A DNA stretch of 54,171 nucleotides from Candidatus Zixiibacteriota bacterium (GTDB lineage Bacteria; Zixibacteria; MSB-5A5; JAUVRN01), in the NCBI GenBank assembly GCA_036745245.1, contig DAIOGN010000002.1:1-54171 (forward strand), written 5' to 3'. The notes under the pieces were generated by a model that searched no databases, was not told the origin of the DNA, and saw nothing but the letters and a program-made list of their open reading frames with translations. The number at the start of each line of letters is the position of its first letter. The stretch's first letter is position 1. Both the position numbers and the translations under genes were made by a program. This document shows, piece after piece, positions 22,580 through 51,869 of the stretch.

Positions 22580-22604
22580 AGGCCTCCTCCTGAGGTAATG
22601 CCCT

Positions 22605-22655
22605 AAAGTGTAAACCATGTGCCCGGAATGAAGTGTAAAGGATGTGCCCGGAATG
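22605..22655. repeat. Tandem duplication of the IS right terminal repeat
   Basis: AGTGTAAACCATGTGCCCGGAATG is followed directly by AGTGTAAAGGATGTGCCCGGAATG (2 mismatches). Confidence 0.7.
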
Positions 22656-22666
22656 TACCAGTATAG

Positions 22667-22740
22667 TAGCGGCGCAGGGATTCGAACCCCGGACAAGCGG
22701 ATTATGATTCCGCTGCTCTAACCAGCTGAGCTACGCCGCC
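22667..22740 (-). tRNA. tRNA with CAT anticodon (elongator Met or lysidine-type Ile2; not initiator)
   Basis: Hand-folded 74-nt cloverleaf: GGCGGCG TA GCTC AGCTGGTTA GAGC A GCGGA ATCATAA TCCGC TTGTC CGGGG TTCGAAT CCCTG CGCCGCT A. G1-U72 wobble pair. No encoded CCA. No C1 mismatch and no GGG/CCC anticodon stem. Confidence 0.9.
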
Positions 22741-23861: not shown

Positions 23862-24080
23862 GGGTCCGCACAACACGGTCTCTCTAAGGCCCTTCGAACA
23901 TACCGATCGCCGCCTCGGGGACCTTGGAAACGGGCTCCTGGGGCCTTATCCTGCGCACTGAGCCCGACCCCAGGGTGCGGGCCGGGGCCACCCCAGCCCT
24001 GTCTGAAATCCGGCTCGGCCGGCCGGCCTGGGGCCATGGCGCTGGGCCCCCTGCGAGCCGATACACTAGAGGTGGCTAAC

Positions 24081-25417: not shown

Positions 25418-27919
25418 TTACTCCGACGGCTCAACGTCGGGATAGAAGTCGGGCACCACCACCAGCAGCTTCCCCGGATCGATGAGTATCTCCCTGAGCC
25501 TGTCGCCGCAGGCGAGCTGTTCGAGCGGCAGCGACTGAAGCACGCGCTCGCCCTGCTGAAGCACGCGCGGCGGATCGAAGGGGTCGGTTACGGCCAGCGC
25601 CAGATCGTTGTTCTCGTCGGAGATCACGGGCACACCGCGCACGTCTTCGCGTAGCGCTTCGTCCGGACGCATGATGCGCGCCAGCAGTTGAAGGGGCTCC
25701 GTGAGACCCAGAGCGGCCAGATCGGCCCGTGGCCCTTCCAGTGCAGCGAAGCGCGACTCGAGAAGGGCCGCGTCGAACGGCTGTCGGCTGCCCATGAGAA
25801 TGAGCTGGTGGCCAAATCCCACGAATAAAAGCGAATGCGGAAACACCTCCACGAACGTGGCCACCATGCGTCGGGCGGCGTTGCCCGACAGGGTGTTCAT
25901 GGGCAGCCACTGCGTCATGGTCCCTTCGGGGGAGAGACGCTCCAGAATGGCGCGGTAGTACTCCACCGAGTACAGGCGGTACACGCCCGCCGCGCGCGGC
26001 GGGGGCGGCTCGCTGGTGACCAGGTCGTAGGTGTGCTCGTAGCGTTCCAGAAACCGGCGGCCGTCGTCGTGGATGAGCCGGACGCGCGGATCGCGGTGCG
26101 ACAGGAGATTGGTCTCCGCAAACTCGTCGGCTGTTTCGAACACCTTGTCGTTCAGGTCGACAATGTCGATTGAGCGGATCGACTCGTGGGAGGCGATAGC
26201 GCGTGCCGTATTCCCCACGCCAAAGCAGATGAGCAGCGCGTCTTTGGGATCGTGCTGTGCCAGAAGAGGCATGTGCGCCATGAGGCGCATATACTGCTGC
26301 GAGTGGGGCGAGGTGCCCGACATGGGGTAGCTGTCGAAGAAGAGCACCTTGCGTTCCGGCGGTCGCACGATGTAGGTGGTGTTCACGCCGTCGCTCTTCA
26401 TGGCGTACACCGGGTGCTGCGCCGCCAGGTGGGTGGGTGAGAAAAAGCTCCGGTCGAAGCTGCCTGGAATGAAGATCGCGCAGGCCACCGCGGCCGCCAC
26501 GGCCGAGCCGAGCGCCAGCCTCGACAGCGGGCGGTAGGGCCGCAGGGTGAGCGCGAGCGCGGCGCAAATCGCGGTCACGGCCACCACGAGTTTCACTGCA
26601 TAGAACAGGCTCACCCGCGGCGCCGCCCACGAGAAGATCACCGCTCCCGCACAGAAGGCCAGCGTGTTGAGTCCGTACGCCCCACCCAGGTGCCGCTTTT
26701 GCGCCTGGGAGGCATTGCACACGGCGGGCAAAGGCAATGAGGCCAGATAGTATGCGGGAAACACGATCACGCCTGTAAAAAGCAGGAGATGCTCGAGGCT
26801 TGCCCCCAGCGGCTGAATGGACGGGTTGGCTACGTCGGGGTGCAAATGCGCCTGAGAGGTCACCCAGTCTACGAATCGCCTGTCGAACCACCGCCGGATG
26901 TCGGTGAGCCAGATCCATGTGGCGGCGTGAACCAGGCACGATCCGGCCAGTGCAGAGCGCACGAGCCAGGGCCTGGGGGGTCCCAGTGCACGCACAGTCC
27001 AGCTGGCGGCGAAGATTGCGGCGATGGCCCAGAAGGAGGTGAACGACATGGCCGCATCCGTAATGGCCCCCGCGAAACGCACGGCGCGGAACATGTCCAT
27101 CTCCAGGGCACCCGTCACGAATCCCGACAGGGTGGCGACCGCCAGAAGCACGGCCGGCTCGAACAACGGCTTGCCGGGCTTCTTCCTGCGATCCTTTGAG
27201 CTGGCCTGCGCCTCTGGCTCGGTCTCGTCCGTCGAACGACCCACGTCCCCGAATCTTCCAAGCGACATGAACGCCAGGCCGAGCAGGACATTCGCCGCCA
27301 CCAGCACCATGAATGTGGTGGAATGACCGAGAAACCTGAGCAGGATGAATTCAGCCGCCAGAACGCCGAGGCAGGCGCCCAGTGTGTTCCAGCCGTACAA
27401 TTCCGATGGCAGCATCTCTCGTTCTCGGAACGCGCGGCAGAGAATCGGAAACGTGGTGCCCATGAGGAAGGTGGGCAGAAGCATGAGTGCCGCACCCAGT
27501 CCCGTGGCCAGCTGGAGAGTGAAGTGCGGCTCGAAGATGCCGCGCTCGTCGACCACGTATGGAAACGTGCTGGAGGCACCCGCTCCCGACAGGTCCAGAA
27601 TCCACGTGAGCAGTGCGGTGGCCGCAATGGCCAGTTCGATCCAGCCTACCAGGCGCAGGGGTCGGCTCAAGAGTGGGATGTTTCCGGCCCAGTGCAGAAT
27701 CCTGCGGCTTGCGAGAGCGCCTGCTCCCAGTCCGCCGATGAAGGCGATGATGACGATGAGAAACGTGAAGGTGGTGGAACCAAAGCGGTCCGCATAGATC
27801 CGGAACCACATCACCTGGTAGCCCAGGCTGATCACGCCGGACAGAAACGTGAGGAGATACAGCCACACGGGCAGGCGTCCGCCCGCGGAACCCGATTCGG
27901 CGGAAAGACGCTCTGTCAA
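25418..27919 (-). CDS. Fused polytopic membrane domain / spermidine-synthase-like aminopropyltransferase fold protein
   Basis: 833 aa. About 500 aa of TM helices, then LLICFGVGNTARA ... IHDDGRRFL ... YDLVTSEPPPP (SpeE-like SAM-MTase fold). Confidence 0.8.
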   Translation of the reverse strand: MTERLSAESGSAGGRLPVWLYLLTFLSGVISLGYQVMWFRIYADRFGSTTFTFLIVIIAFIGGLGAGALASRRILHWAGNIPLLSRPLRLVGWIELAIAATALLTWILDLSGAGASSTFPYVVDERGIFEPHFTLQLATGLGAALMLLPTFLMGTTFPILCRAFREREMLPSELYGWNTLGACLGVLAAEFILLRFLGHSTTFMVLVAANVLLGLAFMSLGRFGDVGRSTDETEPEAQASSKDRRKKPGKPLFEPAVLLAVATLSGFVTGALEMDMFRAVRFAGAITDAAMSFTSFWAIAAIFAASWTVRALGPPRPWLVRSALAGSCLVHAATWIWLTDIRRWFDRRFVDWVTSQAHLHPDVANPSIQPLGASLEHLLLFTGVIVFPAYYLASLPLPAVCNASQAQKRHLGGAYGLNTLAFCAGAVIFSWAAPRVSLFYAVKLVVAVTAICAALALTLRPYRPLSRLALGSAVAAAVACAIFIPGSFDRSFFSPTHLAAQHPVYAMKSDGVNTTYIVRPPERKVLFFDSYPMSGTSPHSQQYMRLMAHMPLLAQHDPKDALLICFGVGNTARAIASHESIRSIDIVDLNDKVFETADEFAETNLLSHRDPRVRLIHDDGRRFLERYEHTYDLVTSEPPPPRAAGVYRLYSVEYYRAILERLSPEGTMTQWLPMNTLSGNAARRMVATFVEVFPHSLLFVGFGHQLILMGSRQPFDAALLESRFAALEGPRADLAALGLTEPLQLLARIMRPDEALREDVRGVPVISDENNDLALAVTDPFDPPRVLQQGERVLQSLPLEQLACGDRLREILIDPGKLLVVVPDFYPDVEPSE

Positions 27920-34441: not shown

Positions 34442-37400
34442 TTAGCGAAGCAGGAGCATCCGCCGGGTCTGAACCTGGTCGCCCGCCTCCAGGCGATAGA
34501 AGTACACGCCCGAAGCCACGTCCCGCCCACGCTCGTCTTTGGCGTTCCAGGTGGTCTCGAACCGACCGGCCGGAAGCGATGCTTCCATGAGCGTGGCCAC
34601 GTCCTGTCCCAGCAGGTTGAAGATGCGCAGCCTGACCTTGGCCGGCAGATCCAGCGTGAATGAAATGTGCGTCTGCGGGTTGAACGGATTGGGCGTGTTG
34701 GGGTGCAACTCAAACGAGACCGGGCCGATCGGCTGTTCGTGAACTGCCACGCTCTCCGTGATTGCTTCATAACGGGAGCGCGCGAGTTGCGTGTTTTGCA
34801 CCAGCCGCGCGAGGCCGTCTTCAGACCCAACGATGGCAAAGGCGATCTGCACGGTATCGCCCGGGGCCGGAAGCGACAGCGGCCCAGTGCCCACGAACGT
34901 CCCCGCATCGCCCAAACCGCCAGAAGGTATAGCACCCGGCCCGATTCCGCCCGAAAGGTAGCTCCACTTTGCGCTGTCCGTCAGCGTCGTCTCGAAGGTG
35001 GTGGGTGCATAGAAGTCCATCTGCGCGTTGATGGCGCGATAGGCCGTCGCGCCCGTGGAAGACACTACGGCCACACCGCGATACGGCCCAGCGGCCGCCT
35101 GACTCTGATTGAACATGTAGGCGAGATGCTCGCTGGCCGAGAAACCGGTGGAGTCGCTCCCTGCCAGAAATGCCGGGAAGTCACAATCGTGCAGGATTCC
35201 GGCGTACAGCCCGCTCAATGCCCCGCCCGACGTATTTTGCAGCGTGTAGATCACCAGTACATAGCCCTGATCGGTGCCCGCCGGGAAGACGAGCGTCCAC
35301 TGCTTCACCGTCAAGCCGATGGGGTTTTCCGCCGCCCCGTCATTGAACTCCGAGAGCGTGGTCTGGAACGCGGTTTCGAGATTGGCCACCTGAAGGAGCG
35401 CGCCCCCCGCATCGGGGATGAAGTCAGCGTCTGTAACCTGCATGCCCGACTCGGCGCCGCCCGACCTGCGGGCCGCATCCGACACCTGGTTTGGACCCAC
35501 GCCAATCACCAGCGCCGCCTCCGCCAGGTGGTTGGTGAGATTGGGATCCACGAGGAAACCCACACCCCCCTCCGGGTAATAGCTGTCAGTCGACAAGCCG
35601 TACTGCCCGTAGTTGGTGACAGTGAATTGTAGAAATGTGTTGTCGTGAGTGAACTGCGACTTAAACGGCGCAGGCTCGGTGTAGTACACGAGCGGATCGA
35701 CCTGCAGGAATCCCACGGCCGCCAGAGCCACCGACAGATTGAGTGGCTGACCCACGGGCGTCCCGGCATCCACCACGAATCGCAGCGGACCCGCGGTGGC
35801 CCAGGCCTGTGCAGCGAGAATCCCGAGGTTCACCGAGTCGGCGAGCAGGGTGACATACGGACCTGTGGGAAGAATCTTGACGAACGCCCCCGTGGCGGGT
35901 GACTCGGACCGGTTTCGCACGCGCAAGTAGAGCGTCACGGTGTCTCCCGCATGAAGGCTGTCACCTGTGCCGGAGGCCGGTAATCCCGCAGCCACGAGCA
36001 GGGATTCGCCCTCCACCCGCAGGTCAGGTCCGCCCATGAGAATCGAGAGCGAATCCGCCGCCGCGGGCAGATTGATGAGGCCCCTGCCGTGCGTGTTGTC
36101 TTCTCCCGGGATGCCCTTGTCGATGGCCGAAACGAACAACGCGTTCTTGATCTCTGCCGGCGTGGCGTTGGGAGCCAGCTGGCGAAGCACGGCGGCGGCC
36201 CCGGCCACGTGCGGCGAGGCCATCGACGTGCCTGAGAGCGGGCCGTACAAACTGTCGTTGCCGCGGTAGCAGGAACGGATGACCACGCCGGGGGCCACGA
36301 CTTCGGGCTTGATGTTGTCCCCCGGGCAGGGAGTGGGACCGCGACTGGACGAAGGAGAAATCGCGTCGCCCGAGATGCTGTAGCTGCCCACTGCGAAGTT
36401 GGTTCCGAACACCGTGCCCGAGTTGGCCGGATAGCCGATCGTGCCCGCGCCCGACCCTTCGTTGCCCGCGGCCCAGATCACGATCACGCCCAGGTCTTCG
36501 AGATGCGTGATGATGCCGTCCATGATGTCGTTACACGGGTACACGATGCCCTGGATGGCGAACCGCCAGGAGCAATTCATCACGTCGGGGACGTCGCCTG
36601 TGGTGTTGGGGTTGCCATCGGGATCGGCCGCCCACTCGAGGCAGCGGATCAGGTCCATCGTGGTGAGGTTGGCTCCGCCGATGCCAAAGGCCGCAATCCA
36701 CTGCGCCTCGGGCGCCACGCCCACCGTGTCGCCGCGCACAGGGTCGGCGCCGCAGATCGTGCCCATGGTGTGCGAGCCGTGATTGGTGGGACTGTTGCCG
36801 ATGTCCGCCGGAAACGTGGTGAGACCGCGCGGATCCAACCAGGCGTGCCACCAGGGCACGGACAGCCCCCGCCAGCGCGCGGCCAGGGCGAAATGCGTGC
36901 CGCGTACACCGGTGTCGATGCCGCAGACGAGGCGTCCGCGGCCGGTGTATCCCTGCGCCCACAGCACGGGCGCGCCGATGGCAACCAGGCCATTCTCCAC
37001 GGTGGCGGCGGACGGTGCGGGCACCTCGGGGGCATCGATCTCTACAGGTGGCAGAAAGCGCACTGCGGCCACGTCGGGCCGCGCCGAAAGCTCCGTGATA
37101 AGTTCGGGAGTGGCCTCGAGTCCTACCACGTTGTCGATCCAGAAGTGATGCACTCCGCGTGCGCGACCTGCGCGGTTCTCCTCCAACAGATGAGTCTTGA
37201 GGTCTCCCTGTGAACGCTGCGCACGCTCCTGGAGTTGTGACAGCACCCGGCTGTGTTGTGCGGCCCGATTGCGTTCACGGACCAGGTTGGCCTGCGGGGC
37301 GGTGTAGCCTGGGTCGGCCACTTCCACAAGAATCGGAATGAACTCGGACGCAGAAGCAACGCGGAGTTGGTCCTGGAGCGCGGGGTCGAGCTGTGCGGCG

Positions 37401-37492
37401 CCAAAGGCGGTGGCCGCCGACAGGAGGCAGAGCAGAAGTACGGAGAGACTCAAAACGGTCGCCGCGATCGGGCGAGTGCTACGCTCAGCCAA
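34442..37492 (-). CDS. Subtilisin-like S8 serine peptidase with an I9 propeptide and a T9SS-type C-terminal sorting domain
   Basis: Catalytic triad contexts [26 protein letters not shown]. Signal peptide. Tail [14 protein letters not shown]...IFNLLGQDV...[10 protein letters not shown]...MLLLR. Confidence 0.9.
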
Positions 37493-40269: not shown

Positions 40270-40303
40270 CGGCCGCTTCTCAACGAGGAGCGGCCGTTTT
40301 GTT
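40270..40303 (+). terminator. Rho-independent terminator (overlaps the last codons of the convergent thiamine pyrophosphokinase gene)
   Basis: Stem CGGCCGCTTC / GGAGCGGCCG (10 bp, one G-U pair), 7-nt loop, then TTTTGTT. Confidence 0.65.
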
Positions 40304-40936
40304 GAGGAATCGATACACGAGCAGGCTTCCGGTTTTGAACGACACCCGTGCAGTGGCGACCATGAGTTCATTGGAGATGCCGTCGCGGCTCCCCATGATG
40401 AGGTCCACTCCTTCGAGCATGTACTTGAGTCCCGAAGTTCTCACGGCCGTTGCGCCGGGCGCGGGCACCAGCGAAATCCTGTCCCCTGGCTGACCCACGA
40501 TGTTGGTACTGGACGGGAAGGCCAGCGTGCCGTCGCCCTGGGCATCGTGCCACACGAACTCCGCCTTGCCGCGGTAGCGGATCATCATACTCACACCGTT
40601 TATCGTGTGATCGATTCGATCCCCCGAAGCGCACACGATCCCGATCTTCTTGGCCCCCAGCTCGAGCGCCAGGAGAACGGCCTTTTCCAGATCCGTGGTG
40701 CTCTGGTCGGTGGAACGGCGGGTCTTGTCGGCGCCCATCGATGCCAGAACTTCAGGCGACACGGAGTCCATATCGCCCACCACGAAGAGCGGCGAAAGCC
40801 CGGCCTCCTTGACTGCGGCGAGTCCGGAATCGGCGGCCAGACATGCTTCATAGCCGGCGGCACACTGTTGCAGGCGCTCGACGCCTACCGGGGCGCCACC
40901 CCCCACCACGAGCACCGATTGCACTTTGTCGTTCAA
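40280..40936 (-). CDS. thiN: Thiamine pyrophosphokinase
   Basis: 218 aa. VVGGG, VVGDMDS, STDQSTTDLEKA, C-terminal thiamine-binding beta domain. The TTG start overlaps the SSS transporter stop (TTGA). Confidence 0.8.
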   Translation of the reverse strand: MNDKVQSVLVVGGGAPVGVERLQQCAAGYEACLAADSGLAAVKEAGLSPLFVVGDMDSVSPEVLASMGADKTRRSTDQSTTDLEKAVLLALELGAKKIGIVCASGDRIDHTINGVSMMIRYRGKAEFVWHDAQGDGTLAFPSSTNIVGQPGDRISLVPAPGATAVRTSGLKYMLEGVDLIMGSRDGISNELMVATARVSFKTGSLLVYRFLNKTAAPR

Positions 40937-42366
40937 GTCCCCACCTCCCTTTCAGCGATTCTATGCAATGTGCCACCTTCCCGCCCCAGCAGCCAGATGA
41001 GAAGTGAAGTTCCCAGACCCACATAAATCCCCGGAACTGCAAACCACGAAGATGTGTGCCCCGCCCCTCGCACCAGCTCCCAGGTGAGCGCCGCGCCTCC
41101 GGCCAGCACGATGTTCAACAGAGCCGCGGACGGTTTGAAGCGATGCCTCGACGAAAACGTGGTGAGCACCGGCAAAAGCAGGGCCGGTGTGGACACGCTG
41201 CCCACGATGTACCAGAGACCCACCACCGACTGAAAGTAAAGCGCCAGCACGACGGCGAGCAGCGCCACCACCCAGAGCGCGCGTCGGGAATACGTAAGCC
41301 CCACGTCGGTGTTCCGCCGCGAGTCATTGAGCCACAGGTCTCGTCCCCCCGTCACGGCCGACACGAACATGTACGATTCCACGGTAGACATGACTACGGC
41401 AAAGAGCGTGATCCAGAAGAACCCCAGAAGCCCCGCGGGCAGGAAGTCCACGGCCAGCCGGGGAAAGGCGGAGACCGGGTCGTCCAGGTGCGTGTACAGC
41501 GCGGCGGCATACAGGCCGCATGTCGTGGTGAGCAGATCGAACACCAGCCAGAAGCACACCGACACCAGAATGCCGCGCCGGGCGGTGGCGTGGTCCTGCG
41601 CGGCGTAGCAGCGCTGGTAGAAGGCCGGTTCGATGAGAGTGGCCAGGGCGATGAAATACCACACTGCGATGTCGCCCCAGGCCTGACCGCCGGTCACCTG
41701 TTTGTGAGTAGCCGGCAGGCGATCCCACAGCGACCAAAGGGGCCCGGCGTCCAGCCAGAGTACGATGACCAGCACGATGAAGCCCGCGAACATGAGCGAG
41801 AACTGAATGAAGTCCGTCTTCAGCACGGCACGGAAACCGCCGCGGTACACGTATGCTACCGACAGGAGCGTGCCAAGCACCACGGACACGGGGAGCGGCC
41901 AGCCGAAGAGCATTCCCACCAGCACGCCGAGCATCAGTACGTACGCGGCGGGCAGCGAAGCCACGAACACCACGAAGGCGCCGGCGCGCGCCACCTTCGG
42001 CCCGTAGGCCGACAGCAGTTGGTCCGGCAGGTTGTAGTAGTTGGTCTTGCGTGCTTTGGAAGCGAGGAACACTGCGAACAGAAGCGCGGCCACATAGTAC
42101 GGCAGTCCGAACACGAACCAGTTGGCCAGGCCGTATGTGTACGAATACTCGCTCACGCCAAGGATGCCACCATACCAGGTGGTGACGAGCGTCATCACGA
42201 ATGCGGGAAGAGTGAGCCTGCGACCGGCGAGAAGGTAGTCGGCGGCGTCGGTGCTGCGCTTGGCCACCTTGAAGCCGAGGGCCGGCACCACGATCGCATA
42301 CGCCGCCACCACCAGCCAGTCGACCCAGTGCATGCGGGCCACGAGGCTCTCGGCCAGGGGATTCAT
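40933..42366 (-). CDS. Sodium:solute symporter (SSS) family transporter; predicted thiamine or thiamine-precursor importer (ThiV-like)
   Basis: 477 aa, ~13 TM helices. SSS N-terminal pattern DYLLAGRRL...TWYGG. The substrate is inferred from its operon position between a TPP-riboswitch-controlled receptor and the thiamine pyrophosphokinase. Confidence 0.8.
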   Translation of the reverse strand: MNPLAESLVARMHWVDWLVVAAYAIVVPALGFKVAKRSTDAADYLLAGRRLTLPAFVMTLVTTWYGGILGVSEYSYTYGLANWFVFGLPYYVAALLFAVFLASKARKTNYYNLPDQLLSAYGPKVARAGAFVVFVASLPAAYVLMLGVLVGMLFGWPLPVSVVLGTLLSVAYVYRGGFRAVLKTDFIQFSLMFAGFIVLVIVLWLDAGPLWSLWDRLPATHKQVTGGQAWGDIAVWYFIALATLIEPAFYQRCYAAQDHATARRGILVSVCFWLVFDLLTTTCGLYAAALYTHLDDPVSAFPRLAVDFLPAGLLGFFWITLFAVVMSTVESYMFVSAVTGGRDLWLNDSRRNTDVGLTYSRRALWVVALLAVVLALYFQSVVGLWYIVGSVSTPALLLPVLTTFSSRHRFKPSAALLNIVLAGGAALTWELVRGAGHTSSWFAVPGIYVGLGTSLLIWLLGREGGTLHRIAEREVGT

Positions 42367-42379
42367 GTGGAGCGTCTGC

Positions 42380-44971
42380 CTACCATTCCGTCCGCAGGCG
42401 CACGAACACGTTGCGCTCAGCCGCCGGCAGAGTGTACGGCACGCCGAAATAGGTGTACCCCGAACCGCTGTACAACTCGTTGGTGACGTTGTTCACCGCG
42501 CACTCGAGCGTCAGACGATTCACGATGGGAGCGGCGCCCAGTCGCACACCCAGCCTGAGGTTGAGCACGTTGTACCGGTCCATCGAGAGTGCAGCGTCGC
42601 CGGTCTGATCGAGCTGAATGCGACCGGCATACCGAAACTCTACGCCGCCGGTGAGTTGGACGCTTTTGCTGAACGGAACTTCTCCGTAAGCTCCCAGATT
42701 GACCAGCACCTGCGGGAAGCCCGCGATCGGGTTCCCCGCGTGATCGATGGTCTCAGTGCTCGCCACGGGCAGGTACACCGTGTCGCCGCCCGTCGGCGAA
42801 TTGAACACCGTGGTGTACTCGGTAAACGTCTCGAAATAATTATCCGACCAGGTGGCGTTCGCGGACAGTTCCAGCTCCCGGAGGGGCTTGTACTTCAGGA
42901 GTCCCTCCACACCGCGGTGGATCGATTCGCCTGCGTTTGTGCGAATGGGAAAGCCGTTCATGTCGAGCCCTCCCGCGGCCACGATCTCGTTGTCGAACCA
43001 CTGATAGAACCCATTGAGGTCGAAGAGCAGCCGGTCCTCCGTGTGGCGGTAGCCCAGATCCAGACTGGTCACCTCTTCAGGCTGCATGAACGGATCGGAC
43101 GCGGCGCCCGACACCGGATCGTAGGAGCCGAAGAATTGCGTGGGATCCTCGAGTTCATCGGGTCTGAAGATGTCGGTGTGCGCCGGCTCGTGTTCACTGC
43201 GCGCGGCATTGAGGTACACCGCGTCGGGCTCCGTGAACCTCCACAGCACTCCCAGGCGCGGCGACCAGGCGGAGTAATCCAGATCGTAGTTCACATTGCC
43301 GCGACTGTCGTGCCGCAACGAATAGCGTCGCCAGGAGTACTGCACGGCCAGCGAGAGGTGCCAGCGTTGTGCGAGTTGGAGGTTCTCCTCCACAAACGCC
43401 ACGGCGGAGGTGCGATACCCGTCGTAGCTGTAATAGTCCTGTCCTGCCAGAAACCCCGGTGGCGCAGGCTGAGCCGAGCGCACCTGGCCGAAGTGGTAGC
43501 CATGATGATAATCGAAACTGCCGCCGAACTGCAGCGTGCCTGCGCCGTGCGCCACCTTGAAGCGCGGTGCCATGCCGAAGAAGTCGTTCTGCACCCAGCG
43601 TTGAAGCACGGCGTTGTTGTATTGATTCACAGTAAACACCGTGTCGCCCGACGACAGGGTGTCGCGACGAAATGTGGACACTTCCACTTCATGCCACAGG
43701 GTGTCGCCGTACAAGGCCGAGTCCTGCACGAACTGAGTACCGGTAACCACGGTTTCGTAGTGGATGGGGTCGTAGGCGAGGCTGTCGCGCGTCTGGATCG
43801 ATCCGAGGCCCAGGTCGCCGAAGCTCGAATACGGCCAGCTCTGGATGTAGTAGCCGTCGCCCTTGATGTAGAACAGCGAGTTGGACAGGCTCCAGGTCTC
43901 AGAGATCTTCCAGTCGGTGAGCAGCTCGTAGTGCGGCTGGTTGAACGTATCGGTCTCGTCCTCGTAGGTGAGCGGATTGAACTTCCGGTCGGAAGCCAGC
44001 GTCACTGGATCGATTCCGTAATACGCCAGGTGGAGGTGTTCGGGTCCGCCATAGGCGTGGAAGCGATTGGTGAGTCCCTGGTCGTAACGAGCCACGCCCA
44101 CGAAGTAGCTCCACATGTCCGTCCACGACTGATCCCGGTAGCCGTCGGACGTGATGCTTGAATAGCGGCCGTACACGGCGTAGCGGCCGTCGATCAACCC
44201 CGAGTTGCCTTCGAGTTTGAACTTGTGGGTGTCATAGGAACCGCCTGCCAGGTCGAGCGAGAGCTTCGGCTCCTGGGTATAGGGCTGCGTCTCGATCGAC
44301 ACCACACCGCCCGCCGCCGACGCGCCGTACAGCGAAGCGCCCACGCCGCGCTGAATCTGGATGTCGGAGGCCGATTCGGACAGGTCGGGCATGTCCACCC
44401 AGTACCCCTGGTGCGGCTCGGGATCGTTCTGTGGCACGCCGTTGAGCAGCACGGAAATCCGGCGCTGGTCGAATCCCCGGATCTGAAGATAGCTGTAGCC
44501 CACGCCGTTCCCGGCATCCGAGTAGGCATAGGCCCCCGGCTGCTTGGCCAAAAGCATCGGTGCGTCTTCCACTCCGTGATCCCGCTCGATTTCTTCGCGT
44601 GTGAGGTTGGAGTGCGGCACGGCGTCAGTCTGCGACGACACACGCGTGGTGGTGATGACGACCTCTTCACCGGGAAGAACGATGGGATCCAGCCGCAGTT
44701 CGAGCGCAATGGCAAGGCCGGCGGTTTCCACCTCCTGTCGAACGGGCGCATAGCCCACATGGCTCACCGCCAGTGTGAAGCGACCATCGGACGCCAATTC
44801 AAAACTGAATTCCCCCGAATCATCGGTGGACGCCGCCTGCCCGGTTTCGACCAGCCGCACCGACGCCGCCGGAATGACTGCGCCGGACTCGTGATCGACA
44901 ACTTTTCCCGAAAGGACAACGGCTTGTGCCTGTAGAGGGAGGAGCGCCACAAGAAGAACACTTCGAAACAT
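42380..44971 (-). CDS. TonB-dependent outer-membrane receptor with a carboxypeptidase-regulatory-like N-domain; predicted thiamine receptor
   Basis: ATG 44971. Signal peptide MFRSVLLVALLPLQAQA. GKVVD...DDSGEFSF domain, plug, and a beta-barrel ending ...VFVRLRTEW. First gene after the TPP riboswitch. Confidence 0.9.
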   Translation of the reverse strand: MFRSVLLVALLPLQAQAVVLSGKVVDHESGAVIPAASVRLVETGQAASTDDSGEFSFELASDGRFTLAVSHVGYAPVRQEVETAGLAIALELRLDPIVLPGEEVVITTTRVSSQTDAVPHSNLTREEIERDHGVEDAPMLLAKQPGAYAYSDAGNGVGYSYLQIRGFDQRRISVLLNGVPQNDPEPHQGYWVDMPDLSESASDIQIQRGVGASLYGASAAGGVVSIETQPYTQEPKLSLDLAGGSYDTHKFKLEGNSGLIDGRYAVYGRYSSITSDGYRDQSWTDMWSYFVGVARYDQGLTNRFHAYGGPEHLHLAYYGIDPVTLASDRKFNPLTYEDETDTFNQPHYELLTDWKISETWSLSNSLFYIKGDGYYIQSWPYSSFGDLGLGSIQTRDSLAYDPIHYETVVTGTQFVQDSALYGDTLWHEVEVSTFRRDTLSSGDTVFTVNQYNNAVLQRWVQNDFFGMAPRFKVAHGAGTLQFGGSFDYHHGYHFGQVRSAQPAPPGFLAGQDYYSYDGYRTSAVAFVEENLQLAQRWHLSLAVQYSWRRYSLRHDSRGNVNYDLDYSAWSPRLGVLWRFTEPDAVYLNAARSEHEPAHTDIFRPDELEDPTQFFGSYDPVSGAASDPFMQPEEVTSLDLGYRHTEDRLLFDLNGFYQWFDNEIVAAGGLDMNGFPIRTNAGESIHRGVEGLLKYKPLRELELSANATWSDNYFETFTEYTTVFNSPTGGDTVYLPVASTETIDHAGNPIAGFPQVLVNLGAYGEVPFSKSVQLTGGVEFRYAGRIQLDQTGDAALSMDRYNVLNLRLGVRLGAAPIVNRLTLECAVNNVTNELYSGSGYTYFGVPYTLPAAERNVFVRLRTEW

Positions 44972-45057
44972 CGCCAGAACTCCGCGTTGGGCCCCGGAGG
45001 GCCGACAAAAATACCGTTCCAGCGCGGGAAACGGCATGCGGCAAGGCAATGTCCGTT

Positions 45058-45140
45058 CCGTTTCCTACGCTGGTATTACCCAGATCAGGTTCGAAGGGTG
45101 TGATCTCAGATGCCGTTCGCTTCGGCACCGACCCCTACGG
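45058..45140 (-). promoter_or_regulatory. TPP (THI-box) riboswitch aptamer
   Basis: Minus-strand read: CCGUAGGGGUCGGUGCC..GGCAUCUGAGAUCACACCCUUCGAACCUGAUCUGGGUAAUACCAGCGUAGGAAACGG. Contains the CUGAGA and ACCUGAUCUGG.UAAUACCAGCGUAGG cores, with a P1 stem CCGU/ACGG. A hairpin plus U-run (CCGUUUCCCGCGCUGGAACGGUAUUUUUG, + coordinates 45005-45035) follows as a possible expression platform. Confidence 0.9.
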
Positions 45141-45225
45141 AACAACGTCACGATATCCAATCCGGCCCCGCCTCACAAGGCGATTCGCTGGCACCGGAAC
45201 CCCTTCTCCAGTAGCTTGTGCGCCT

Positions 45226-46020
45226 ATGAGTTCCGAAACCAGGCAGTACGCCCGCTGCCTCGCTCGTGCGCAGGAAGTAGCCAAGGCCGCGGGCTGCAAG
45301 CTGCGCGCCGCTCAGAGCAGGAAGCCGGCCGTAGACTTCAAGGGAGCCATCGACCTGGTGACGGAGATGGATCGCAAAGTGGAGCGCTTCATCGCCTCGG
45401 AATTGTCGCGATCTTTCCCCGGATTCGACTTTCTGGCGGAAGAAGCACAGCGCAACGTGGCCACCGGGTCGGAGTTTCGCTGGGTGGTGGATCCTCTCGA
45501 CGGCACCACCAACTATGCACACGGTTTGCCGATTTTCAGCGTCTCCATCGCGCTCGAACACCACGGAAAGGTAGTGGTGGGCGTGGTATATCAGCCGGTG
45601 CTCAACGAGATGTTTGCGGCGCAGAAGGGCCGCGGAGCGCGCCTCAACGGCCGGAGAGTTTCGGTGTCCACACGGTCACACCTCCACCACAGCCTCCTGG
45701 TGACCGGGTTCCCTTACGACATGCACACCACGCGCGACGACAATCTGAAATACTTCAGGCGACTGTCGAAGCGCGCACGCGCGGTACGCCGCCTGGGCTC
45801 GGCGGCTCTCGACCTCTGCTACGTAGCTTGCGGCCGATTCGACGGCTACTGGGAGCTGAAGCTCGCACCCTGGGACGTTGCAGCCGGCTCGCTTGTCGCA
45901 ACAGAAGCTGGCGCGAGGATCACTACTATGGAAGGACGCCCGTTTTCAATGTACGGACGTTCCCTGGTGGCCGCTGGGCCACGCCTTCACGGTACCCTGC
46001 TTTCCTGCCTGCACGGCTGA
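45226..46020 (+). CDS. suhB: Inositol monophosphatase family protein (SuhB-like)
   Basis: ATG 45226. EEA, WVVDPLDGTTNY, and GSAALDLCYVACGRFDGYWE motifs. Confidence 0.85.
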   Translation: MSSETRQYARCLARAQEVAKAAGCKLRAAQSRKPAVDFKGAIDLVTEMDRKVERFIASELSRSFPGFDFLAEEAQRNVATGSEFRWVVDPLDGTTNYAHGLPIFSVSIALEHHGKVVVGVVYQPVLNEMFAAQKGRGARLNGRRVSVSTRSHLHHSLLVTGFPYDMHTTRDDNLKYFRRLSKRARAVRRLGSAALDLCYVACGRFDGYWELKLAPWDVAAGSLVATEAGARITTMEGRPFSMYGRSLVAAGPRLHGTLLSCLHG

Positions 46021-46240
46021 ACCCGCCCCGCCGAAAAGCGGCGGCAAGCTTCCCCCAACCATTTATTCCACTTGGATTTAGCTTGTATTACGGTTCTGTC
46101 ATTCGCCCGTCATAAAACCTACTCGCTGGCTCCTAACCTCGGGTCAACGGGGAGGGGTGTGTCTACCCCGTAACAGCAAATAGCCAAAGGGATTTGACGA
46201 AGAGTCACGGGCACAGAAACAGCGAATTCAGGAGAACACA

Positions 46241-49159
46241 GTGACGTTTTCACATAGTGGAATTCAAAAGCAGAGATGGTTCCATGGCAGCACGCTCACG
46301 CGAGCACTGTTTGCGCTTGTGTTGACAGTGTGCGGTGCGTGGGCCGAGGGCGCATTCGCCGGCACACTTCGGGGAAAGATCGTGGATTCCCAGACCGGCG
46401 AGCCGCTCATGTTCGTAAGCGTGGTGATTACCGGCACCAACAAAGGCGCCGCGACCGATCTCGAAGGTGTATTCGTCATCCGAGAGGTCCCGGCCGGGAC
46501 GTACGAGGTGAACGTCACCATGGTGGGCTACTCCAAGCGCGTGATCACAAGCGTGGTGGTTCCCGAAGGCGACGCCGAACCGTTGAACCTCACCCTGACT
46601 CCCGAAGTGATCATGGGGGAGGAAATCGAGGTCACGGCAGAAGCGATCAAGAACAACAACGAGGCGGCGCTGCTGCGCGAGCGGCAGAAGGCCTCGTCGG
46701 TGTCGGATGCCATCAGCCAGGAAAACATCAGTCGCTCCGGCTCGAGCACCGCGGCCGACGCAATGGAGAAGGTCACCGGCGTGTCGGTGGAAGACGGCAA
46801 GTACTTCTACGTTCGCGGCCTGGGCGACCGCTACACCAACGCACGCCTCAACGGCGCCTCGCTGGCCAGCTCCGACCCCGACCGCAACTCGGTGTCGATG
46901 GACATGTTCCCCTCGAACTTCCTGGAGAGCATCGTCACCACCAAGACCTTCACGCCCGATCAGCCGGGCGATTTCACGGGTGGCAGCGTAAACATCCGCA
47001 CCACCACGTTTCCGGAGAAGCTCAGCGTGAAGTTCTCCATGTCGGCCTCGCGCAATGACGCGGCGCCACGAGACGACAAGTTCCTCACGTATCCCGGCGG
47101 CGCGACAGACTGGATGGCCACGGACGACGGCACGCGCGCAATCCCCGACGAGCTGGAGGAGCCGGGTCAGCTCCCGAACATCGGCACCACGTTTCGCGAC
47201 TCGACCAAAGCCTACACGCTCGATCACCTGAGCAAGGCCTTCAATCCGAACATGGGGCCCTCCACTCGCACGGTGCCGGGCTACCACAGCGAGGCGCTCT
47301 CGATTGGCAGCCAGAGCCTGGTGTTCGGCAAGCCGCTGGGCTACTTCGCCAGTTTCAGCTACAACAAGAGTCTGTCGTCCTACGAGGAGGGGACGTCCGG
47401 GTGGTACTACCTCGCGGGTCACGTCGACACCAAAACGGAGCTGGAGACCAACCTGTCCTTGAAAGACTACCGCAGCACGGAGGAGGTACTGTGGGGTGGG
47501 ATGGCCAACCTCTCCTTCAAGCCGCATCCGGCTCACAACCTCCACGCCACATACAACTACAACCGTCGCGGCGAATCGTCCACGCGGTACCAGACGGGGA
47601 TCTTCCCGCACACGCTTACCGACGGCACATTTTTCGAAACCCGCACGCTCTCGTACCTCGAGCGCACGCTCCAGGCCGTTCAGGCGGGCGGCGATCATCA
47701 TCTCACCAGCTGGCTCAACACCGACTGGACGGCGTCGTACACAAACTCCAGGCAGGACGAACCCGACCTCAGGTACTTCTCCAACGACTTCACGCCGGAT
47801 GAGGCCAACCCGGTGGACACATTCTTCGACATCAAGAAGTCCAATTACACGCTGCCCACCCGGTATTATCGCGATCTCGACGAGGACATTTACGACGGAC
47901 TCCTCAACACCACGCTCCCCTTCGACGTGTGGGGCGGGCTCAAGAGCAGCGTGAAGCTGGGAGGCAGCCTGAGCCACAAGATGCGCACGTTCCGTGAGCG
48001 GCGATTCACGTACGATCACTCGGGCGACGGCGAGTCGCGCTACGATGGCGACTGGTACAATTACTTCACGGAGGATGTGGGAGTCGTGAGGGTGGACACG
48101 GCGCCCAATGGCAACAAGTTCTACACGTTCGGCCAGTACGTCTATGAGTCGTCGTCCCCTTCCTCCAACTACAACGGCGAGCAGGACATCTACGCGGCCT
48201 ACGCCATGATCGACCTGCCCGTCACGAGGCGATTGCGGCTGATTTCAGGGGCTCGCTACGAAGCGACCCGAATGCAGGTGGAGAGCCTGGACAAGAACAA
48301 GGATGTGGGACTCCTGCACATCAACGACGTGCTGCCGTCGGTGAATGTGGTGTATGCGCTTCGCGACAATATGAACGCGCGCGCCGCCTTCACCAAGACA
48401 CTGGCGCGACCCACGTTCCGCGAACTGGCCCCCTACTCCACCTTCGACTTCGTGGGAGATGGAATCGTCTCGGGGAATCCCAATCTCAGACGGAGCCTCA
48501 TCGACAACTACGACCTGCGGCTGGAGTGGTTCGTGCGACCTGGTGAGCTTCTGGCCGTGAGCGGGTTCTACAAGAATTTCCGCGACCCCATTGAACGCGC
48601 CATCATTTCCAGCCAGAACAACGAGATCCAGTTTCAGAATGTACCGATGGCACGCGTGACAGGAATTGAATTCGAAGCCAGGACCCGCCTCGACCACGTG
48701 TCGGGGGCGTTGCGCAATGTTCAGATCGGAGGCAACCTCACTCTCATGGAGTCGGAAGTGAAGGTTCCCCCCACCGAGCTGGGGGAGCGGCGGTCGCTCG
48801 ATCCGTATGCGCCCGACACCCGGCAGCTGCAGGGCCAGTCGCCCTACCTGATCAATCTGGACGCGGGCTTCAACAGCCCGCGCACAGGTACTTCGATCAG
48901 CTTGTTCTATAACATCTTCGGCGAGCGGATGTCGGAGGTGGCCGTGGGCGGCAGCCCGCACACGTTCGAGCAGCCGCGTGGGCTGCTCGATCTGAGTCTG
49001 TCCCAGAACCTCTGGCGCGGCCTGTCCTTCGGCTTTCAGGCCAAGAACCTCCTCGATGCCAGCCTCAAGAAGACTCAGGAATTCAAGGGTCAGGAGTACA
49101 TCGTCAGCGAGTACAAGCTGGGGCGAACCTTCAAGATGGGGTTCAGCTACAACCTCTAA
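46241..49159 (+). CDS. TonB-dependent outer-membrane receptor with a carboxypeptidase-regulatory-like N-domain, substrate unknown
   Basis: GTG 46241, 5 nt after GGAGA. Signal peptide. GKIVDSQTGEPL...DLEGVFVIREVPAGTYEV, plug, and a barrel ending FKMGFSYNL. Confidence 0.9.
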   Translation: MTFSHSGIQKQRWFHGSTLTRALFALVLTVCGAWAEGAFAGTLRGKIVDSQTGEPLMFVSVVITGTNKGAATDLEGVFVIREVPAGTYEVNVTMVGYSKRVITSVVVPEGDAEPLNLTLTPEVIMGEEIEVTAEAIKNNNEAALLRERQKASSVSDAISQENISRSGSSTAADAMEKVTGVSVEDGKYFYVRGLGDRYTNARLNGASLASSDPDRNSVSMDMFPSNFLESIVTTKTFTPDQPGDFTGGSVNIRTTTFPEKLSVKFSMSASRNDAAPRDDKFLTYPGGATDWMATDDGTRAIPDELEEPGQLPNIGTTFRDSTKAYTLDHLSKAFNPNMGPSTRTVPGYHSEALSIGSQSLVFGKPLGYFASFSYNKSLSSYEEGTSGWYYLAGHVDTKTELETNLSLKDYRSTEEVLWGGMANLSFKPHPAHNLHATYNYNRRGESSTRYQTGIFPHTLTDGTFFETRTLSYLERTLQAVQAGGDHHLTSWLNTDWTASYTNSRQDEPDLRYFSNDFTPDEANPVDTFFDIKKSNYTLPTRYYRDLDEDIYDGLLNTTLPFDVWGGLKSSVKLGGSLSHKMRTFRERRFTYDHSGDGESRYDGDWYNYFTEDVGVVRVDTAPNGNKFYTFGQYVYESSSPSSNYNGEQDIYAAYAMIDLPVTRRLRLISGARYEATRMQVESLDKNKDVGLLHINDVLPSVNVVYALRDNMNARAAFTKTLARPTFRELAPYSTFDFVGDGIVSGNPNLRRSLIDNYDLRLEWFVRPGELLAVSGFYKNFRDPIERAIISSQNNEIQFQNVPMARVTGIEFEARTRLDHVSGALRNVQIGGNLTLMESEVKVPPTELGERRSLDPYAPDTRQLQGQSPYLINLDAGFNSPRTGTSISLFYNIFGERMSEVAVGGSPHTFEQPRGLLDLSLSQNLWRGLSFGFQAKNLLDASLKKTQEFKGQEYIVSEYKLGRTFKMGFSYNL

Positions 49160-49339: not shown

Positions 49340-50986
49340 ATGAGGAGGAGCGACATGTTTCAAAGATGGATGGTGGCATTGCTCGTGCTGCTTGTGCCGG
49401 CTGCCGCGCTTGCGCAGCTGGATAGTATCATCGTGACCGATGCCGGATTCGCCGGAGACCACGTGGTGTGGTCGCCCGATTCGGCCAATTTCTACCTTCT
49501 GACCGAATTCATCTTCGTCGAAAACGGCGACACGCTGGAGATCGAGCCCGGCACCGTGATCAAGGGCGAGCCCGGCACGGCCGATTCGGCTTCGGCGCTC
49601 ATCGTGGCTCGCGGTGGGTACCTGATCGCCGACGGCACGCCTTCAGAACCCATCATTTTTACCTGCCAGGCCGACGATCCCACGGATCCGTTCGACCTGC
49701 CTGAGAATCTCCGCGGCCAGTGGGGCGGCCTGGTGCTGCTCGGCGTGGCGGGTACCAACCGTGCCGGCGACTCGGGCCAGATCGAAGGCATTCCCGCCAC
49801 TGAGCCGCGCGCCCGCTATGGGCCGGGAGCGGCGTTCCCCCTCAACAACGCAGACAATTCGGGCATCGTGCGTTACGTGTCCCTGCGCTACGGCGGCACC
49901 GTCATCGGCGCAAACAATGAAATCAACGGCCTCACCATGGGCGGAGTAGGCTCGGGCACCACCGTCGACTACGTCGAAGCTTACAATAATGCCGACGATG
50001 GCATCGAGTGGTTTGGTGGTACGGTGAACGTGAAGCACTTCGTCTCCGCGCGCTGCGACGACGATGGCTACGACTACGACGAAGGCTGGCGTGGAAAAGG
50101 CCAGTACTGGTTGCTCTATTTCGACGACGCCGACGGCAACTCGGGTGGCGAGCACGACGGCGGCACCACGCCCGAAGACGGCATGCCCTACGCGGTCCCG
50201 GTGGTCTCCAACGCCACGTGGATCGGCGCGGGCGACGCCAGCGGTGCATTCAATGATATGGCGTTCAACATCCGCGACAATGCGGGCGGCAAGTACTCCA
50301 ACTCGATCTTCGCCGACTTCTTCGGCTTCGGTGCTCAGATCGAGGATCTGGTGTCGGGCAAGGACAGCCGCGAGCGGCTCGACTCCGGCGAGATCGAGTT
50401 CCAGCGCAACATCTGGTACAGCTTCGGTTCGGGCGACGGAGTGGCTCAGTTGTTCCCCGAGGCCTGGACCCAGGCACACATGTCGGCACCGGCCAATCAG
50501 AACCTGTTCGGCGTGAATCCCAAGCTGACCAGCTGGCCCAAGCCGGGCCGCCCTGCGGATGGCAGCTTCAATCCCATCCCGCAGGTGGGCGGACCCGCCT
50601 CGTCGGGCGGCGTGGTCCCGGTCGATCCGTTCTTTGACGTGGTGACTTACAAAGGCGCGTTCGATCCCAACGGCACCAACTGGGCCCTGGGCTGGACCGC
50701 TCTCGATTTTCACGGCTACTTCGGCAACGGGAACGCCTGCGCCATTATTGTGGATGGCGACCTGAACGCGAGCAACACCGTGACGTCCTCCGACATCATC
50801 ACGCTGGTGAACTACGTGTTCAAGGGCGGTGCAGAGCCGGAGCCGTGCGCGGCCAACGGTGATGTGAACTGCTCGGGATCGGTCAGCTCCGCCGACGTGA
50901 TCACGCTCGTCAACTTCGTGTTCAAGGCCGGTCCGCCGCCGTGCGACATCTGCAACACTCCGGCCGCGCAGGATTGTATCCCGTGA
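49340..50986 (+). CDS. Secreted beta-helix-like protein with a C-terminal six-Cys dockerin-like module
   Basis: Signal peptide (M)FQRWMVALLVLLVPAAALAQ. Alternative start ATG 49355 lies 4 nt after GAGGAGGAG. NEINGLTMGGVG...DDGIEWFGG repeats. Module at 50738..50983. Confidence 0.85.
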   Translation: MRRSDMFQRWMVALLVLLVPAAALAQLDSIIVTDAGFAGDHVVWSPDSANFYLLTEFIFVENGDTLEIEPGTVIKGEPGTADSASALIVARGGYLIADGTPSEPIIFTCQADDPTDPFDLPENLRGQWGGLVLLGVAGTNRAGDSGQIEGIPATEPRARYGPGAAFPLNNADNSGIVRYVSLRYGGTVIGANNEINGLTMGGVGSGTTVDYVEAYNNADDGIEWFGGTVNVKHFVSARCDDDGYDYDEGWRGKGQYWLLYFDDADGNSGGEHDGGTTPEDGMPYAVPVVSNATWIGAGDASGAFNDMAFNIRDNAGGKYSNSIFADFFGFGAQIEDLVSGKDSRERLDSGEIEFQRNIWYSFGSGDGVAQLFPEAWTQAHMSAPANQNLFGVNPKLTSWPKPGRPADGSFNPIPQVGGPASSGGVVPVDPFFDVVTYKGAFDPNGTNWALGWTALDFHGYFGNGNACAIIVDGDLNASNTVTSSDIITLVNYVFKGGAEPEPCAANGDVNCSGSVSSADVITLVNFVFKAGPPPCDICNTPAAQDCIP

Positions 50987-51029
50987 TCATGGACGAACCG
51001 TATTTCATCCCATTGGAAGGAGTGACAGC

Positions 51030-51869
51030 ATGAAGTGGTACCTACAAATCTTCCTGGCGACCACCGCATTGACAGTGACGGCCGCCGCCGGATCCGCCCA
51101 GGGCGCGATCACGAGGGACGTGGTGCGCCTGTCGGATCCTCAGCAGGTCGCCGGTGAGTGGCACGTGGCCCTGCACGTGGAGAACAGCCGCGAACTGGCG
51201 GGCCTCGACCTCCCGCTGCGGTTTGCCGGTGCAGGTTCTCAGGTGGAACTGGTGCGTGTGGAGTTCTCCGATCGCGTGGCCGACTGGGAGTTCCGACACG
51301 CTCAGATCGACAATTCAGCCAAGACGGTGGTGATCGGGCTCATCTCGGAGCTGGTCAACGTTCGGCCGGCCGCCGAGCTGAAGGTGGCCGCTTCCGGGTC
51401 CACCCAGGTGGCCGACCTGGTATTCAAGGCGGAACCGGGGGCCCAACTAGAGTTCGGCACGTTCACCTCCGAAGCGCCGGCGCACCAGCTCACCTTTCTC
51501 TACAACGAGAACGTGGACGGCCAGCCGGTGGTGAAGGAGCTCGTGCCCGAGTTCGAGGCCTACGTGAACTTCCGGGAGGACGTGGCGCGGCCGTTGGAGT
51601 ACGCGCTGTCACAGGCGTTTCCGAACCCGTTCAATCCCACGACCAGCTTCACACTGTCCCTGCCCGAGGCGTCCGACTACTCGATTCGGATCTTCAACGT
51701 GGCCGGCCAGCTTGTGAAGTCGATGGAAGGGCATGTCGAGGCCGGATCGCACCGGATCGTTTGGGATGGTCGCTCTACACAGGGCCAGCCCGTAGCCTCG
51801 GGGACTTATTTCTTCAGCGCTCATGCGGGCTCCTTCCAGGAGACTCGCACCATGACGCTCCTGAAGTAG
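51030..51869 (+). CDS. Cohesin-like domain protein with a T9SS-type C-terminal sorting domain
   Basis: ATG after GGAAGGAG. Signal peptide. A ~165-aa beta-sandwich-like domain with a cohesin-like strand pattern. Tail FPNPFNPTTSFTLSL...IFNVAGQLV...GTYFFSAHAG...MTLLK. The cohesin assignment is by eye only. Confidence 0.8.
   Translation: MKWYLQIFLATTALTVTAAAGSAQGAITRDVVRLSDPQQVAGEWHVALHVENSRELAGLDLPLRFAGAGSQVELVRVEFSDRVADWEFRHAQIDNSAKTVVIGLISELVNVRPAAELKVAASGSTQVADLVFKAEPGAQLEFGTFTSEAPAHQLTFLYNENVDGQPVVKELVPEFEAYVNFREDVARPLEYALSQAFPNPFNPTTSFTLSLPEASDYSIRIFNVAGQLVKSMEGHVEAGSHRIVWDGRSTQGQPVASGTYFFSAHAGSFQETRTMTLLK

Follow-up and report, generated by a model that had tools for sequence, protein, structure and literature searches.

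Which inner-membrane carrier serves a TonB-dependent receptor that is controlled by a thiamine pyrophosphate (TPP) riboswitch, and does this carrier belong to a known class of thiamine importers? The question is raised by a locus in a 54,171-nucleotide stretch of DNA from a Candidatus Zixiibacteriota bacterium (GTDB lineage Bacteria; Zixibacteria; MSB-5A5; JAUVRN01; assembly GCA_036745245.1, contig DAIOGN010000002.1), which we refer to as the window. Between positions 40280 and 45146, a TPP riboswitch and the genes for a TonB-dependent receptor, an SSS-family transporter and thiamine pyrophosphokinase (TPK) are all co-directional. An original prediction, made from the DNA letters alone, had read the three genes as a route for uptake and activation of thiamine. 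We find it probable that the locus is a thiamine salvage operon, which is shut off by its end product TPP. The aptamer, a pair of mutually exclusive helices, the family identities of the three genes and a linkage of riboswitch, receptor and symporter that crosses phyla are observed directly; that both transporters carry intact thiamine is inferred, as the most likely assignment.

Three translationally packed genes follow the riboswitch

The genes of the locus are, in the order of transcription:

42380..44971, minus strand: TonB-dependent outer-membrane receptor, 863 amino acids (PF13715, PF07715, PF00593)
40933..42366, minus strand: SSS-family transporter, 477 amino acids (PF00474 at 1.8e-31, 109.9 bits)
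40280..40936, minus strand: TPK, 218 amino acids (TIGR01378 equivalog, 119.1 bits against a cutoff of 76.4; PF04263 and PF04265)

The receptor consists of a signal-peptide-like N-terminus (MFRSVLLVALLPLQAQA), a CarbopepD_reg_2 extension, a plug and a 22-strand barrel, in this order, with both the plug (PF07715 at 4.5e-15) and the beta-barrel (PF00593 at 1.3e-35) recognized by Pfam. Its ATG start codon at 44971 is invariant among relatives. A gap of 13 nt ('gcagacgctccac') leads to the SSS gene, and the TGA stop codon of the latter overlaps the TTG start codon of the TPK gene by 4 nt (cTTGAac), with a GGAGG located 7 nt 5' of the TTG. Pfam and NCBIfam place the transporter in the SSS family at the superfamily level only (TIGR00813, 108 bits, under the cutoff of 184). 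The relatives of TPK in the PDB are thiamin pyrophosphokinases, the closest being 3k94. TPK converts thiamine and ATP into TPP and AMP. Domain models and sequence agree with the receptor at 44971..42380, the SSS gene behind a 13-nt gap and the TPK gene with a TTGA overlap that had been described initially.

The leader contains mutually exclusive helices

Upstream of the receptor gene, the following elements are found:

45150..45178, minus strand: candidate sigma-70-like promoter, TTGTGA (45178..45173), 17-nt spacer, TATCGT (45155..45150)
45045..45146, minus strand: TPP riboswitch aptamer (THI element, RF00059), with the CUGAGA and ACCUGAUCUGGGUAAUACCAGCG sensor helices intact
45019..45073, minus strand: antiterminator predicted with ViennaRNA, in which 45073..45058 (CCAGCGUAGGAAACGG) pairs with 45034..45019 (CCGUUUCCCGCGCUGG)
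45006..45037, minus strand: intrinsic terminator from a terminator scan, a 10-pair hairpin AUGCCGUUUCC...GGAACGGUAU at 45037..45011 followed by UUUUUG

The Rfam model of the TPP riboswitch matches over its full length (model positions 1-105 of 105) with 63.2 bits, against a gathering threshold of 54.3, and an E-value of 4e-10. The covariance scan that had been proposed as a check thus scores above the threshold, and the THI-box aptamer that had been recognized by eye at 45058..45140 corresponds to the core of the match. When the complete window is searched with every Rfam model, two matches are returned, a tRNA and the TPP riboswitch, and no other riboswitch. Both the pyrimidine-sensor helix with CUGAGA, a sequence that is universally conserved in TPP aptamers, and the pyrophosphate-sensor helix (ACCUGAUCUGG...CCAGCG) are present, and a covariance model built in this analysis from related loci scores the aptamer at 80.3 bits. 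In 64 homologous aptamers, 96.9% of the positions expected to pair are paired, compared with at most 59% in controls in which the partners were slid; there are 77 doubly changed cells, and 8 pairs have double changes. The aptamer is located 74 nt 5' of the receptor start codon.

The terminator lies between the two, 35 nt 5' of the start codon, and the terminator scan reports TTTTGTCGGC directly after the hairpin. The strand 45073..45058 of the antiterminator comprises the 3' strands of aptamer helices P5 and P1, and its partner (45034..45019) includes the 5' arm and the loop of the terminator. When the segment 45075..45000 is folded with ViennaRNA, the antiterminator helix forms at -32.7 kcal/mol; the terminator alone has -11.1 kcal/mol. 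If the aptamer nucleotides are blocked, mimicking the ligand-bound state, the terminator hairpin folds instead. From these mutually exclusive helices, the leader is modelled as a classic TPP-dependent transcription-termination OFF switch, and we infer that it responds to the ligand in vivo. The hairpin and U-run that had caught the eye behind the aptamer are therefore part of a predicted terminator/antiterminator switch.

The candidate promoter ends 4 nt before the Rfam match, and with it transcription would begin at the aptamer's 5' edge. Its candidacy comes from conservation: TTG and TAnnnT are kept at fixed spacing in three relatives from the window's own clade (loci L089, L090 and L091, described below). 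In two freshwater-sediment metatranscriptome sets, short contigs span 44928..45127 and portions of the receptor gene, which is weak evidence that leader and receptor are transcribed.

Riboswitch, receptor and symporter are linked across phyla

We scanned GTDB (one genome per species) with an alignment of 21 SSS homologues, and analysed the best 80 of at least 587 stretches that encode a related protein. All of them are metagenome-assembled genomes (MAGs), labelled as Zixibacteria, Ignavibacteria, Eisenbacteria, Latescibacterota, Calditrichia, Fibrobacteraceae, KSB1, Krumholzibacteriia, Bacteroidota, Cytophagia and a few others. The SSS proteins of these 80 loci are 43-53% identical to that of the window. 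In most of the loci a homologous receptor (25-40% identity, tblastn) adjoins the SSS gene, usually upstream of it, and downstream in six Eisenbacteria loci.

The Rfam model detected a TPP riboswitch in 8 of the 11 loci in which it was tried. A new covariance model built from these eight and applied to all 80 finds a same-strand riboswitch upstream of the receptor-SSS pair in 57 loci; these are all the loci that contain both the pair and the region upstream of it in full. Loci without a match are either incomplete at contig ends or belong to a group of seven that have no receptor, and in these seven no riboswitch is found even with filters off. In four loci from Zixibacteria and Ignavibacteriales MAGs, TPP aptamers are arranged in tandem 5' of the receptor-SSS pair (L035:3202-3458, L036:2860-3484, L053:3213-3456 and L065:3170-3559). 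Tandem TPP riboswitches are known elsewhere.

The three relatives from the window's clade share the complete layout of riboswitch, receptor, SSS and TPK, with SSS proteins that are 58-79% identical to that of the window. The gene order in this clade is receptor-SSS-TPK, the kinase always being the third gene. Aptamer, terminator arms, T-run and receptor ATG are kept in all three, the hairpin with changes in its arms. The same four components are also found in L025, L048, L054, L058, L070, L078 and L084, and in eight loci the TPK gene is located between those for the receptor and the SSS protein. In one of these loci (L048:4631-5248, plus strand, a Calditrichia MAG), an extra open reading frame (ORF) of 205 residues lies between receptor and TPK, inside the riboswitch-headed operon. 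Because the layout recurs in the three clade relatives, and the riboswitch-receptor-SSS arrangement in 57 of 57 complete loci elsewhere, it is not a product of chance.

The symporter belongs to a distinct SSS clade

The SSS protein has 2575 homologues with an E-value of at most 1e-5 in the protein collection. Residues S327 and T328, of the Na2-site in transmembrane helix (TM) 8, align with S340 and T341 of PutP, and D185 aligns with PutP D187 in TM5; all are conserved in the clade, and coupling of transport to Na+ is therefore plausible. The motif TWYGGILGV (residues 62-70, with W64, Y65, G66 and G67) is invariant in the clade and specific to it. This segment aligns with the TM2 region of PutP that binds substrate and ions, and its aromatic residues could suit the cationic thiazolium of the cargo.

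For placement within the family, reference sequences of SAR11_0811, algal SSSP, PutP, OpuE, PanF and SiaT were taken from the alignment that accompanies PMC11452348 as a supplement. In blastp comparisons, the window protein scores 33-35 bits with SAR11 ThiV, 24-27 bits with algal SSSP, and 55-66 bits with OpuE and PanF, whereas ThiV and SSSP score 130-200 bits with each other. In a neighbour-joining tree, of which the bootstrap values are usable for the reference clades only, ThiV and SSSP form a group with 100% support; the window clade is outside this group and branches nearer PanF, PutP and OpuE. Low scores with ThiV and the tree position together rule out that the symporter is a ThiV/SSSP protein. 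The matches to the NCBIfam models panF (65.1 bits, cutoff 328) and PutP (56.9 bits, cutoff 515.5) are far under the equivalog cutoffs, and rule out PanF and PutP as well. From bit scores, equivalog cutoffs and tree, we conclude that the symporter, as judged by sequence comparison, represents an SSS clade of its own, which has no name. The comparison with ThiV, PanF and PutP that had been suggested thus upholds the assignment to the SSS family and not a membership in ThiV. The nearest relative with a solved structure is the choline transporter SLC5A7 (E 2.5e-12).

A set of plasmid-borne ThiV-like candidates (from Haladaptatus, Oceanisphaera and Gemmobacter) was also considered. Their neighbours are genes for agmatinase, LysR and other unrelated proteins, with no link to thiamine, and they were dropped.

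Thiamine is the most likely cargo

To survey what else is encoded with the transporters, a total of 54 accessory ORFs that run in the same direction was collected from 61 riboswitch-headed loci and compared with Pfam. The only thiamine-related families among them are the two TPK domains (9 and 8 members). Since TPK acts on intact thiamine and is the sole thiamine enzyme that is co-encoded, intact thiamine is the most likely cargo of both transporters. The reading of the locus as a route of uptake and activation is supported by the tie of the SSS clade to TPP riboswitches and the receptor across phyla, and by TPK as the only thiamine enzyme encoded with them.

The commonest other accessory family in the survey is GreA, with 14 members, as a downstream neighbour in Zixibacteria and Ignavibacteria. 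The GreA/GreB gene is located about 25-65 nt 3' of the SSS gene in 14 riboswitch-headed loci (for example L005:9418-9894, L007:7415-7891 and L011:7418-7894). This adjacency probably reflects synteny within the Zixibacteria and Ignavibacteria lineages, and not a functional tie.

We propose the following sequence of events. Transcription probably begins a few bases upstream of the aptamer. At low TPP, the 3' half of the aptamer and the segment that follows it would form the antiterminator, allowing the polymerase to read into the three packed genes. The TonB-dependent receptor would then carry scarce thiamine across the outer membrane, and the SSS carrier would bring it through the inner membrane, with Na+ as the probable driving ion. 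TPK would turn thiamine into TPP in a single step, which would also trap it in the cell. Once enough TPP is present, it would bind the aptamer and hold P1 and P5, so that the terminator hairpin and U-run form and transcription stops ahead of the receptor gene.

Alternative explanations

Several observations speak against this proposal, or narrow its reach. Among the 80 loci analysed, seven of the related SSS genes stand in unrelated housekeeping contexts without receptor or riboswitch, and for this reason the SSS clade is not always thiamine-regulated. In the GTDB set, a kinase gene adjoining the transporter genes is limited to 8 of 80 loci, about 10%. A simple scan detects intrinsic terminators in just 15 of 59 homologous leaders, so the termination mechanism is predicted to hold for the clade of the window and a minority of the other loci. 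A sigma-70 promoter scan upstream of the aptamer gave nothing above threshold, the candidate having 8 of 12 consensus matches. The RNA contigs are few and of low depth, and could include DNA. No thi biosynthesis genes are found in the window, 54 kb being too little to judge the de novo pathway of the host, and our literature search returned no transport or binding experiment on the SSS clade or the receptor.

The cargo could be a thiamine precursor or breakdown product, such as HMP, AmMP/FAMP or a thiazole moiety, as has been proposed for SAR11 ThiV. There is a precedent in ThiV/SSSP, a riboswitch-controlled SSS carrier that probably imports HMP in Pelagibacter (PMC11452348; PMC4260697), and most of the related loci have no adjacent kinase, so that their context leaves the cargo unpinned. 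We nevertheless consider import of a precursor unlikely: the SSS protein of the window is outside the ThiV/SSSP clade, the partner in the window, in its clade and in eight other loci is TPK, which acts on intact thiamine, and no ThiD, ThiE, ThiM or TenA family member is found among the 54 accessory ORFs. A more radical possibility is that only the receptor is related to thiamine, and that the SSS protein, encoded by a passenger gene, transports something unrelated, for instance pantothenate, proline or a choline-like cation. Such substrates would fit the nearest characterized relatives (OpuE, PanF and PutP, at 36-66 bits) and the similarity to SLC5A7, and the seven clade members that are not linked to a riboswitch would fit as well. 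A passenger gene is, however, very improbable in view of the receptor-SSS pair occurring, in two gene orders and in many phyla, behind a TPP riboswitch in every complete locus; in the window the SSS gene is moreover wedged between receptor and kinase by the 13-nt gap and the 4-nt overlap, and its scores with the PanF and PutP models are far too low for either equivalog.

As regards regulation, the riboswitch might act mainly on translation or RNA stability instead of transcription termination. For Bacteroides, control by TPP riboswitches at either level has been reported (bioRxiv 10.1101/867226; PMC5613172), and 44 of the 59 homologous leaders have no simple hairpin with T-run. The window and its clade keep the terminator and the T-run, mutually exclusive with a strong antiterminator, and the GGAG 5' of the receptor ATG falls outside the terminator and antiterminator helices, which makes control at these other levels quite unlikely here. 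We thus retain the salvage operon with TPP-dependent termination as our preferred explanation for the window.

Relation to known thiamine uptake systems

A full-text literature search yielded one direct precedent, and no paper that analyses or tests the SSS clade. In Caldithrix abyssi, the locus Cabys_3975-3977 was described in a single annotation sentence, without experiments, as consisting of riboswitch, receptor, symporter and kinase (Kublanov et al., 2017, PMC5317091). It was taken to serve the uptake of thiamine in this organism, whose thiamine pathway is incomplete (PMC5317091). The window has the same four-part composition as described for this locus. A Calditrichia MAG (L048) likewise combines riboswitch, receptor, TPK and SSS, and its SSS protein is 42% identical to that of the window. 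The window differs in belonging to another phylum, with SSS proteins that are about 42-45% identical, and in gene order, which is receptor-TPK-SSS in the Calditrichia type and receptor-SSS-TPK in the clade of the window; in addition, PMC5317091 gives no analysis of the symporter. The locus type is therefore already on record for Caldithrix abyssi, and the window is a further predicted case. For the claim that an SSS carrier behind a TonB receptor has little or no experimental support, this means that the scarcity of experiments stands (we found no transport assay in the literature), but that the layout itself had been described before.

The best-studied counterpart is Bacteroides thetaiotaomicron, in which there is genetic evidence that OMthi (BT2390) and pnuT-tnr3 (BT2396-BT2397) serve thiamine acquisition (PMC5613172). 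There, as in the window, an outer-membrane TonB transporter under a TPP riboswitch, an inner-membrane carrier and TPK make up a full salvage route. The receptor and pnuT-tnr3 are in separate riboswitch-controlled operons in B. thetaiotaomicron, whereas the window has a single operon with a single riboswitch. The carriers are different too: PnuT is described as a channel-like protein for facilitated diffusion with metabolic trapping (PMC5749112), and the carrier of the window is a predicted SSS-family symporter, coupled to an ion. The receptor described for Caldithrix was said to resemble BT2390 (PMC5317091), which is the sole, and indirect, tie of the window receptor to BT2390.

In its regulation, the receptor also resembles the omr1-type TonB receptors, potential outer-membrane transporters of vitamin B1 with a THI element upstream (Rodionov et al., 2002), which PMC10881298 and PMC12442306 employ as a marker. 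Regulation by a TPP riboswitch, a feature of the omr1/OMthi group, is found for the window receptor and, in 57 loci, for its homologues. Studies of B1 in the environment treat omr1 and thiV as two distinct markers, the specificity of omr1 being labelled unclear (PMC10881298; PMC12442306).

The ThiV of Rodionov has been equated with the SSSP clade, including SAR11_0811, by McRose et al. (PMC4260697). The ThiV/SSSP proteins (Methylobacillus ThiV, SAR11_0811 and algal SSSP) share with the symporter of the window that they are PF00474 symporters under a TPP riboswitch and have been assigned a role in thiamine-related uptake. They differ in belonging to another SSS clade, by blastp and by the fully supported group that excludes the window protein. 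In addition, ThiV is tied to HMP and to contexts with tenA, thiG or thiM, and we found no description of ThiV paired with a TonB receptor.

Genomic surroundings

Two further features flank the operon:

45226..46020, plus strand: inositol-monophosphatase-family gene (PF00459 at 1.1e-68), divergent from the riboswitch promoter region
40270..40296, minus strand: possible operon-end hairpin, CGGCCGCU / AGCGGCCG, with an 11-nt loop that contains the TPK stop codon, and a weak T tract; tentative

The hairpin was read by eye and is absent from the output of the terminator scan. The inositol monophosphatase gene is not part of the transcript under riboswitch control, and the relatives L002, L089, L090 and L091 share this neighbourhood; a link to thiamine phosphate metabolism is speculation. 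A longer ORF at 45036..46115 (plus strand) was rejected as the upstream neighbour, as it has no Pfam match and the actual divergent gene is the one listed above.

The window has a G+C content of 62%, and its sequence recurs in groundwater and freshwater-sediment metagenomes. Beyond the inositol monophosphatase gene, a second and unrelated TonB-dependent receptor is encoded without a riboswitch (46241..49159, plus strand; TIGR01782 type, 265 bits, under the cutoff of 310). After it, at 49340..51869 (plus strand), come a protein with a dockerin domain and another whose C-terminal domain is of the FlgD_ig type. Large predicted secreted proteins at 14440..17205 (minus), 24036..25412 (plus), 34442..37492 (minus) and 49340..50986 (plus) have dockerin type I, thrombospondin type 3 or FlgD_ig-type C-terminal domains. 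Among them are an S8 subtilase and a beta-propeller protein, and the S8 homologue in L089 has a weak Por_Secre_tail match, hinting at type IX secretion. Together, the FlgD_ig-type and Por_Secre_tail domains suggest an FCB-type lineage.

Elsewhere in the window (21395..22740, minus strand), an rve-type integrase/transposase ORF at 21395..22696 abuts, and nominally overlaps, a tRNA with anticodon CAU at 22667..22740, and may represent an inserted mobile element. An 833-residue protein encoded at 25418..27919 (minus strand) has a spermine/spermidine synthase domain (residues 542-669) as its sole Pfam match. The relatives of the neighbouring M20 dipeptidase at 73-89% identity are metagenome contigs, and its named matches, at about 55%, are spread over Planctomycetota, Latescibacterota and Eisenbacteria.

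Implications

Taken alone, the window provides a sound functional annotation and not a discovery. New here are the breadth and strictness with which riboswitch, receptor and symporter are linked, and the finding that the symporter clade is distinct from ThiV. The two results put this clade forward as a concrete, testable candidate for one more class of thiamine importers in bacteria. We lean towards the view that a separate, unnamed SSS clade has been recruited for thiamine uptake independently of ThiV/SSSP, and is the standard partner, at the inner membrane, of TonB receptors under TPP riboswitches in candidate phyla of the Fibrobacterota-Chlorobiota-Bacteroidota type (Zixibacteria, Ignavibacteria, Eisenbacteria, Latescibacterota, Calditrichia and the lineage of the window). 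It would then be an ion-driven alternative to PnuT, and take its place beside ThiBPQ, ThiT, PnuT and ThiV.

Most environmental bacteria are auxotrophs for vitamin B1. Surveys of B1 cycling count markers such as thiB, thiT, thiV, pnuT and omr1 (PMC10881298; PMC12442306). The symporter clade is in none of these marker sets, yet it stands with the receptor behind a TPP riboswitch in every complete locus that we examined. If its members indeed carry thiamine, an annotation gap would be closed for many sediment and groundwater phyla, metagenome studies would gain an additional marker for B1 uptake, and the diffusion-type PnuT would have a Na+-driven counterpart.

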